64,000 nucleotides of DNA. Origin: an uncultured Clostridium sp. (GTDB taxonomy: Bacteria; Bacillota; Clostridia; TANB77; CAG-508). Under the pieces are notes generated by a model, which ran no database searches, had not been told where the DNA came from, and was given only the letters and a program-made list of their open reading frames with translations. Where the stretch lies: positions 64,780 to 128,779 of the forward strand of contig CATZPY010000001.1 of the NCBI GenBank assembly GCA_958422985.1, read 5' to 3'. This document shows, piece after piece, positions 13,337-15,058 of the stretch (its first letter is position 1; each line of letters starts with the position of its first letter). Made by a program: the position numbers and the translations under genes.

Positions 13337-14956
13337 GTGATTAAAATTAATAGAGTAAATAGTTATAGAAACATAAAAGTTGCGAAATACATACGTTTAT
13401 CTCGTGAAGATGGAGATGATAGAGAAAGCGAAAGCGTAGAAAACCAAAGAGATATTATAGATAACTACATACAAGAACATGAAGAGTTAATTGAGGCAGG
13501 AGAATATGTTGATGATGGATATACAGGAACAAATTTTAATAGACCAGGATTTCAAAAAATGTTAAAAGATATTGAAGAAGAAAAAATAGACTGTATTATT
13601 ACAAAAGATTTATCAAGGTTTGGAAGAGACCACATAGACACAGGATATTATTTAGAAAGGTATTTACCAACGAATAATATTAGGTACATAGCAATTGGAG
13701 ATAATGTAGACACCCTAAAAGCGGATGGTTTGCAATTTTTAACATTTAAGCTTAGCTTTAATGATTACTATGCACAAGACATATCTAATAAAATAAAAAG
13801 TGTAAAACAAAGAAAGATAGAAAAAGGAGAATATCAAGCGGGAATACCACCATATGGATATAAAAAAGATATAGAAAAAAAGAATCACTTAATCCCAGAT
13901 GAATATAGTTCAAAAATTGTAAAAGAAATTTTTGATATGTATGCAAAAAAAGGAATGTCAACAATTAAAATTGCAAATGAATTAAACGAAAGAGAGATAG
14001 AGCCACCAGCAGTATATTTAAAAATTCCAAAATATATGAAAAGGAAGAGTGTAAATCCAAATGGAAAATATGTATGGCTTAGGGCGCAAATAGGAAAAAT
14101 TTTAAGAAATGAAGTATATTTAGGCAGTGTAGTAGGAAGAAAATTTCAAAAAGTTAGCCATAAGATAGTAAAAGTAAGATCTACTAAAAAAGAAGAACAT
14201 ATTATTTTAGAAAATATGCATGAGCCAATTATAGATATAGAAACTTGGAATAAAGCACAAGACAAATTAAATGGATATACAAAAACAAGAGAAAGAAAAT
14301 ATGACCATATATTAAAAGGTTTAGTGTATTGCGGAGAGTGTGGTAATAAGGCTACTTTAAGATGTAGAGAAGAAAAAAGAAAAAATGGAAATGTGTGGAG
14401 AGCTACTTATTTTATTTGTTCAAAAAGAAATAATTATAGTGCATTATGTGATTGTAAACAAATATCAGCAAACTTAATTGAAGAAGTGGTAATTGGAAAA
14501 ATAAAAGAAGAAACAAAAAAAATAAAATTTTCGGAAGATGAAATTAAAAAAATTTATAATAAAGCAGAACAAGAGGCAAATAGTACAAATAATTTATACA
14601 AAATAAAATTACAAGAAATGCAAATGCAACTAAAAAAAGTAGAAAGCAATATAGAAGAAATTTATCAAGATAAAATAAACAAAACGATACAAGTAGAAGA
14701 TTTTAAAATAATTTATTTAAAAAAACAAAAAGAAAGAGAAAAAATTGTAAAGGAGATTAATAAAATAGAAAATGAATTAAAAAAAACTAGCAATATGCAA
14801 TCCGAAGTTGACTTAAAAGAAATAAGACAGATTGCAGAAGATTTATTAAATATGAAAGAGCCAAATAAAATAATTTTACAAGAGTTAATAAAAAAAATAG
14901 AGTTTAATAAGAATAAAAATATAAGTGTAAAACTAACATTCAAAAATACAATATAA
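13337..14956 (+). CDS. Large serine recombinase (SpoIVCA/SprA/TndX class)
   Basis: 539 aa with a GTG start after SD AAAGGAGAG. Resolvase catalytic N-terminus (VAKYIRLSREDGD...ESVENQRDII...DDGYTGTNFNRPGF...ITKDLSRFGRD), a recombinase domain, a zinc ribbon (CGECGNK...CSKRNNYSALCDC) and a long coiled coil. Confidence 0.9.
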   Translation: MIKINRVNSYRNIKVAKYIRLSREDGDDRESESVENQRDIIDNYIQEHEELIEAGEYVDDGYTGTNFNRPGFQKMLKDIEEEKIDCIITKDLSRFGRDHIDTGYYLERYLPTNNIRYIAIGDNVDTLKADGLQFLTFKLSFNDYYAQDISNKIKSVKQRKIEKGEYQAGIPPYGYKKDIEKKNHLIPDEYSSKIVKEIFDMYAKKGMSTIKIANELNEREIEPPAVYLKIPKYMKRKSVNPNGKYVWLRAQIGKILRNEVYLGSVVGRKFQKVSHKIVKVRSTKKEEHIILENMHEPIIDIETWNKAQDKLNGYTKTRERKYDHILKGLVYCGECGNKATLRCREEKRKNGNVWRATYFICSKRNNYSALCDCKQISANLIEEVVIGKIKEETKKIKFSEDEIKKIYNKAEQEANSTNNLYKIKLQEMQMQLKKVESNIEEIYQDKINKTIQVEDFKIIYLKKQKEREKIVKEINKIENELKKTSNMQSEVDLKEIRQIAEDLLNMKEPNKIILQELIKKIEFNKNKNISVKLTFKNTI

Positions 14957-15031
14957 GATATTAATATTAATATTAATATAAAAAGTACATAGAAAATATT
15001 AAGAAGCGGTTAAAATAATCGCTAAAAAATA

Positions 15032-15058
15032 GACATTAAGAAATTAGGGAACCATACA
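15032..15058. repeat. attR: element-side arm GACATTAAGAAATTAGG plus GAACCATACA
   Basis: The arm 15032-15048 is the inverted copy of 1914-1930. The core CATACA (15053-15058) is the same as at attL. Confidence 0.8.

Follow-up and report, generated by a model that had tools for sequence, protein, structure and literature searches.

A 13.1-kb recombinase-bearing element interrupts the spore cortex gene pdaA in an uncultured gut Clostridium and is probably excised in the mother cell

The sporulation gene pdaA is interrupted by an intervening element in an uncultured Clostridium sp. (contig CATZPY010000001.1), of which we analysed a stretch of 64,000 nucleotides (nt), here called the window (G+C content about 25%). 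The element occupies positions 1914–15058 (+; 13,145 bp), and every gene listed in it is co-oriented with pdaA. A first-pass annotation had placed an intervening element in pdaA at 13337–15058; the element is real, as an empty site in a conspecific contig demonstrates, but that interval covers only the recombinase gene and the right attachment site, not the entire element. The same annotation pointed to a conflict between sporulation compartments. In Bacillus subtilis, pdaA is transcribed by sigma-G in the forespore. This premise holds and extends to Clostridioides difficile, in which pdaA is sigma-G-dependent and made in the forespore (PMC3789822, PMC6021603). The second premise, that characterised sporulation elements sit in mother-cell genes, is confirmed (PMC4191935, PMC10747680): the host genes sigK, spoVFB, spoVR, spsM, gerE and yabG all belong to the mother-cell programme, and the elements leave the chromosome in that compartment only (PMC4191935, PMC10747680, PMC5595907, PMC5025042). 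We think it rather likely that the present case follows the same rule, with a non-phage, skin/gin-like element of 13.1 kb, integrated by its own large serine recombinase, being excised in the mother cell to rebuild a pdaA–yqfCD operon that is itself expressed there.

The element and its insertion site

The 5′ fragment of pdaA (1494–1913, +) comprises codons 1–140 and ends in ...GHIVGNHT, its frame continuing into the element as far as a stop at 1958. The 3′ fragment (15059–15445, +) extends from VNHKSLP... to the stop codon, within an open frame from 15047 that reads GNHTVNHKSLP.... The recombinase gene starts 11.4 kb downstream of the 5′ half. When 1494–1913 is joined to 15059–15445, an in-frame protein of 268 amino acids (aa) results, split between codons 140 and 141. 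A protein search with this joined sequence returned a full-length protein (P0001) that is 98% identical to it and is encoded on a conspecific contig (L055), which has the same flanking genes and flanking DNA 95–96% identical to that of the window. In L055, pdaA is uninterrupted and free of the element, and the sequence at the site corresponds to the left half of attL followed by the right half of attR. Because the empty site equals this join, the insertion is real and not a chance arrangement; the element has inserted into pdaA.

In the attP of a large serine recombinase, a short crossover sequence is expected at the centre, with an imperfect inverted arm on either side, and the attP deduced here has this form. 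The core, CATACA, is identical in attL (1908–1913) and attR (15053–15058), and the crossover falls inside it. On the element side, the attP-derived right arm, CCTAAATTCTTAATGTCC (1914–1931), is an inverted repeat of the attP-derived left arm, AGACATTAAGAAATTAGG (15031–15048); in the deduced attP, these imperfect 18-nt arms flank the sequence GAAC-CATACA. The same arms recur at every other occupied site that we found.

The large serine recombinase (13337–14956, +; 539 aa, GTG start) lies 96 nt from the attR core and matches the integrase family phrog_95. Its Resolvase (PF00239), Recombinase (PF07508) and Zn_ribbon_recom (PF13408) domains all score above cut-off, and its best NCBIfam similarities are to CcrB, CcrC and XisF, each under its cut-off. 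The recombinase gene is preceded by a conserved open reading frame (ORF) of 39 aa (13160–13279, +) without a family match. A small ORF of 38–44 aa was always found upstream of the recombinase in the elements examined, and the residue motif YG..NLK.IL.ELLK is kept across diverged elements; we consider the 39-aa ORF a candidate recombination directionality factor. Between this ORF and the recombinase start, the window holds an AT-rich inverted repeat, GCTTATTTA ... TAAATAAGC (13279–13314), which has similar counterparts in relatives and may be an attenuator or a binding site.

By family score, the joined gene product is PdaA, a delta-lactam-biosynthetic de-N-acetylase with a predicted enzymatic activity. 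Its score against the NCBIfam equivalog TIGR02884 (spore_pdaA), 305.6 bits, narrowly exceeds the cut-off of 298, and its closest solved relatives, at 233–245 bits, are 2J13 (Bacillus anthracis BA0424) and 1W17 (B. subtilis PdaA), CE4 deacetylases of N-acetylmuramic acid involved in muramic delta-lactam synthesis; other CE4 deacetylases with solved structures score at most 121 bits. The insertion point lies between the two histidines of the CE4 H-T-x-x-H metal-binding motif. Since the split separates both histidines, neither fragment is expected to be active alone, and the interrupted gene, judged by this motif, cannot make an active enzyme.

The element shares several features with sporulation gene-intervening elements: it sits inside a sporulation coding sequence, carries its own recombinase near an attachment site and, when removed in silico at the attachment cores, leaves an in-frame gene. 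No phage structural, packaging or lysis genes were found in it with Pfam or PHROGs, and the PHROGs matches within it are limited to the integrase and the FtsK-like ATPase domain of the cargo protein EssC. The element thus does not qualify as a prophage or defective prophage, and its lack of structural genes places it closer to gin than to skin. Like gin, a non-prophage element with one or more serine recombinases in gerE of Bacillus cereus ATCC 10987, it has relatives that carry two or three recombinases; it differs from gin in host gene, clade and cargo, and gerE is an undisputed mother-cell gene. A close parallel is skinCd of C. difficile, also a large serine recombinase element inside a sporulation gene (there sigK) and also polymorphic among strains, although the cargo described here is not phage-like. 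The other known elements, skinBs (sigK), SPbeta (spsM), vfbin (spoVFB), vrin (spoVR) and yin (yabG), likewise rebuild their genes by precise excision during sporulation and leave the forespore copy untouched; they are prophages or the remains of prophages, and their host genes are expressed in the mother cell of the models, whereas the model orthologues of pdaA are forespore genes. No published report of an intervening element in pdaA was found in the searchable literature.

Selection and inheritance at the interrupted gene

We compared the joined genes of pairs of carriers. Between the window and L018, both interrupted, the ratio of non-synonymous to synonymous substitution rates (dN/dS) is 0.09 at a dS of 0.21, and between L020 and L021, again both interrupted, it is 0.019 at a dS of 0.24; a comparison of intact with intact pdaA gave 0.06. 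Interrupted alleles are under strong purifying selection, like intact ones.

At least seven further species-level genomes (L017, L018, L020, L021, L022, L025 and L034) carry an element at the same site in pdaA, and every recombinase homologue inspected lies within pdaA, beside yqfCD. Carriage of the element is polymorphic within the species of the window: at least 85 contigs have intact alleles from the same 90% cluster, and the exact recombinase was read on ten contigs, from human-gut samples (for example ERR13899948, ERR14039905 and ERZ28619031). The elements range in size from 4.5 to more than 15 kb and vary in cargo, with modules shuffled between them and tandem arrays occurring. At some pdaA sites, two or three recombinases are arrayed (L060, 10001–13233; L069, 5598–13212; L071; L073), which suggests stacked insertions at the same attB. 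The cargo of these arrays includes a HipA-like kinase, a MatE transporter, a sigma/anti-sigma pair, a PemK toxin and insertion sequence elements.

In L020 and L021, the elements have the same architecture and the recombinase genes the same frameshift (described below), at a dS of about 0.3. The shared architecture and frameshift indicate that the element predates the split of these two lineages and has been inherited vertically over many generations, during which selection continued to act on the two parts of pdaA. Such long vertical inheritance in turn argues against its routine loss from the germ line. Together with many metagenome contigs, the occupied genomes make this a widespread element family among uncultured human-gut Clostridia.

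Compartment of pdaA expression and of excision

Statements about compartment below draw on promoter-like sequence, synteny and selection. Throughout the lineage, pdaA lies directly upstream of yqfC and yqfD; in the window, yqfC (15448–15735, +) starts 3 nt past the pdaA stop and is followed by yqfD (15741–16928, +), and no promoter or terminator was detected between pdaA and yqfCD. The three genes apparently form an operon. In Clostridium sensu stricto, pdaA does not adjoin yqfCD. The downstream genes, yqfC and yqfD, are sigma-E genes in C. difficile. Consistent with expression in the mother cell, sigma-E-type promoters (ATA-N15/16-CATA...T) precede pdaA in six sister lineages (L002; L005; L006/L008/L009; L034; L057/58; L069–72), three of which (L034, L057/58 and L069–72) have interrupted genes, and the match in L006/L008/L009 is a perfect ATA-N16-CATACATT. 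Across 16 loci, this pattern was found upstream of 7 of 296 genes, and cross-referencing of the scans indicated that most or all of the seven are pdaA genes. A further group (L012/13/14/33/36) has a common CATAAAAT −10 box upstream of pdaA without a clear −35 element. No sigma-G- or sigma-F-type promoter was detected upstream of pdaA at any of the 31 related loci scanned. As controls from the same genome, a small acid-soluble spore protein (SASP) gene has the forespore-type promoter GAATA-N17-CATCATA, and spoIVB (TIGR02860) has GTATT-N14-GGATAAAATA. A third control, YyaC, was dropped because its sigma-F match overlaps the ribosome-binding site and the start codon.

These data favour the reading that pdaA is mother-cell-expressed in this lineage, one of the three outcomes that the first-pass annotation had offered and the one best supported here by the sister-lineage promoters and the yqfCD operon, although the window clade itself has no canonical promoter. 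The apparent paradox is probably dissolved by a regulatory rewiring of pdaA.

The promoter of the recombinase operon points in the same direction. Positioned 32 nt upstream of the 39-aa ORF is a sigma-E-type promoter, ATA-N16-CATACAAT (13102–13128, +), the sole full match in the window to ATA-N16-CATACANT. Taken alone, this match is not significant, because 0.52 such matches are expected per window, and the looser sigma-E-type pattern occurs at a frequency of 3.7e-4 per nucleotide per strand. The arrangement recurs, however: ATA-N15/16-CATA[AC][AG]AT precedes the small ORF by about 30 nt in the window/L018/L056 group, in L020/21, in L057 and in L070, and L060 has a sigma-K-type match at this position. 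In all, the small ORF and the recombinase follow a sigma-E-type promoter in five independent lineages of the element, and in a sixth the match is of the sigma-K type. In L020 and L021, where the small ORF–recombinase module sits at the element's opposite end, behind unrelated DNA, the promoter is still of the sigma-E type. Regular-expression scans found no sigma-G- or sigma-F-type promoter upstream of the recombinase operon, and the stretch from the recombinase gene to yqfCD yielded neither a promoter nor a terminator. A generic sigma-70 scan of 12900–15800 returned no more matches than shuffled sequence did.

This recurrent mother-cell-type promoter, combined with a conserved small ORF, resembles the arrangement in skinCd, in which a sigma-E consensus promoter drives CD1234, a small acidic protein without database relatives that limits excision to the mother cell. 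We infer from this parallel that excision of the pdaA element is confined to the mother cell, the reading that we favour. The two systems differ in the control of the recombinase itself: CD1231 of skinCd has a sigma-A promoter, whereas the 39-aa ORF of the pdaA element stands immediately upstream of the recombinase gene and is probably co-transcribed with it.

Under the proposed mechanism, the onset of sporulation would lead to transcription of the 39-aa ORF and the recombinase from the sigma-E-type promoter in the mother cell. Recombination of attL with attR at CATACA, a join that we made in silico, would release the element as a circle and re-form an in-frame pdaA at the head of the pdaA–yqfC–yqfD operon, in the mother-cell chromosome only. 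The enzyme would be made in the mother cell and reach the cortex across the outer forespore membrane, a step proposed because of the sigma-E-type promoters in sister lineages, the yqfCD operon and the lack of forespore-type promoters. The forespore chromosome would retain the element and pass it on vertically. Before excision, read-through from the sigma-E-type promoter of the element may keep yqfCD expressed.

Several observations weigh against this model. First, pdaA is forespore-expressed in both model organisms. Second, in the window clade (the window, L055, L017, L018, L001 and others), no canonical sigma-E/K or sigma-G/F promoter was found upstream of pdaA; an aligned remnant is all that remains, ATA-N15-TACAATAT in place of the ATA-N15-CATAGAAT of L002. 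Third, no excised form was seen: exact-pattern searches of the IMG/VR and JGI metagenome contigs found no free or relocated attP, and the exact joined PdaA protein is absent from a collection of 15 billion proteins, in which the alleles present differ from it by at least four residues. Finally, the promoter patterns are simple consensus regular expressions, and the host is uncultured. The promoter negatives should be read with care because the same expressions missed the probable forespore pdaA promoters of Clostridium sensu stricto, with the exception of L029.

For the window clade, no convincing sigma-A promoter was found upstream of pdaA, and a candidate TTGATA-N17-TAATAT upstream of the window gene was rejected because it lies too near the ribosome-binding site. 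The promoter region of pdaA in this clade falls in the intergenic region shared with an Agr-type quorum-sensing locus, which stands directly upstream in divergent orientation (576–1319, −, in the window; 6896–9826 in L055) and encodes AgrB, a 39-aa AgrD-like peptide, a histidine kinase and a LytTR response regulator.

Excision could instead take place without regard to compartment, that is, stochastically, in vegetative cells or in both sporulation compartments, generating subpopulations with an intact pdaA, with re-integration or horizontal transfer maintaining the element. It would then behave as an ordinary integrative mobile element whose attB happens to be a conserved pdaA motif. Such behaviour would fit the polymorphism within the species (at least 85 contigs with intact alleles against about 10 recombinase contigs read), the shuffling of cargo between elements and the tandem arrays, and yin of Clostridium botulinum has been found excised at all growth phases. 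We nevertheless regard this explanation as unlikely, given the six independent contexts in which a mother-cell-type promoter precedes the small ORF and recombinase, the long vertical co-inheritance in L020 and L021 and the lack of a free attP in two contig collections.

A second explanation, raised in the first-pass annotation as reversible excision with re-integration, keeps pdaA in the forespore: the element would be excised there and restored at germination, or carried in the spore as a circle, under the control of a directionality factor. Forespore expression of pdaA is conceivable because the promoter of the window clade matches no mother-cell consensus, nor indeed any sporulation consensus. 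The gene is sigma-G-dependent in B. subtilis and C. difficile, and large serine recombinases carry out integration when the directionality factor is absent. Set against this, no sigma-G/F-type promoter was found at pdaA or at the recombinase operon, in a genome whose SASP gene and spoIVB have recognisable ones; the recombinase operon has a sigma-E-type promoter; and pdaA is joined in an operon with the mother-cell genes yqfCD. The proposal finds no support here and is very improbable; if true, it would amount to a reversible developmental rearrangement of a heritable bacterial genome. Least probable of all is that the element never excises and pdaA is simply inactivated in carriers, with delta-lactam supplied by a paralogue or dispensable: no excised form was observed and pdaA mutants of model organisms still form spores, but this suggestion, too, from the first-pass annotation is contradicted by pdaA halves that remain open and under the purifying selection described above, by conserved recombinase and attachment-site arms, and by a split between the two histidines of the metal-binding motif that would prevent the fragments from working separately.

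If excision in the mother cell is correct, pdaA would be added to the few sporulation genes that excisable elements control. The pdaA genes of this lineage differ from the model genes in lying upstream of yqfCD and, in sister lineages, in having a sigma-E-like promoter instead of a sigma-G promoter. Their sequences offer evidence that an enzyme of cortex modification, produced in the forespore by both models, has shifted to the mother-cell programme in another lineage, and the case would show how the restriction of such elements to mother-cell genes constrains, or follows, regulatory rewiring. The recombinase, the 39-aa ORF and the attachment sites form a compact set for tests of directionality control.

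Cargo, frameshifted recombinases and neighbouring genes

Beyond the recombination module, the element carries several groups of cargo genes. A 114-aa protein (2070–2414, +) is a weak match to DUF4406/nucleoside deoxyribosyltransferase-like proteins, a family also present in the L057 element. It is followed by two paralogous membrane proteins (2636–4028, +; the first, 2636–3259, is DUF2238-like, and the second spans 3237–4028) and by proteins of 811 aa and 167 aa without family matches (4141–7006, +). The largest unit is a type VII secretion-like module (7135–12939, +) that encodes a WXG100-like protein of 249 aa (7135–7884, +), EssC (8103–12695, +; TIGR03928, 926.7 bits against a cut-off of 778.4) and an 87-aa protein (12676–12939, +). 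In the window element, EssC is full, and EsaA, EssA and EssB are not recognisable. The module is present in the elements of the window, L017, L020/21 and L056, and absent from those of L018, L057–59 and L070.

A subgroup of the recombinases contains an extra C at the same place in the resolvase domain, after ...IRYIAI, within AT[T/A] C GG[A/G]. Genes of this type lie at 2392–3979 in L020, 2399–3998 in L021, 11625–13233 in L060 (the second recombinase gene), 5598–7212 in L070 and, as a further copy in L069/L071, at 12243–13212 in L069. The extra base creates a CGG codon with a stop shortly after, and the +1 frame continues the recombinase; many database clusters (P0208–P0237) consist of the C-terminal recombinase ORF alone. 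We rejected the possibility that the L020 and L021 genes are pseudogenes, which would have left the element stuck in place: the parts before and after the frameshift are each under purifying selection (omega 0.09 for both), and the site recurs in diverged recombinases. CGG accounts for only 2 of 12,666 codons. The simplest explanation would be that ribosomes shift into the +1 frame at the hungry CGG codon, which makes the site a candidate for programmed frameshifting.

Two further regions of the window stand out. Between yqfD and ybeY, at the position that phoH occupies in B. subtilis, lies a gene for a lysine/glutamate-rich protein of 408 aa (16933–18159), which matched no family and is kept at 56–96% identity across the lineage. 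Just upstream of spoIVB, a long co-oriented cluster (24361–36067) encodes small proteins with pilin-like hydrophobic N termini (MENASKALIIAGG...) together with large membrane and ATPase-like proteins, and looks like a Tad/type IV pilus-like system.

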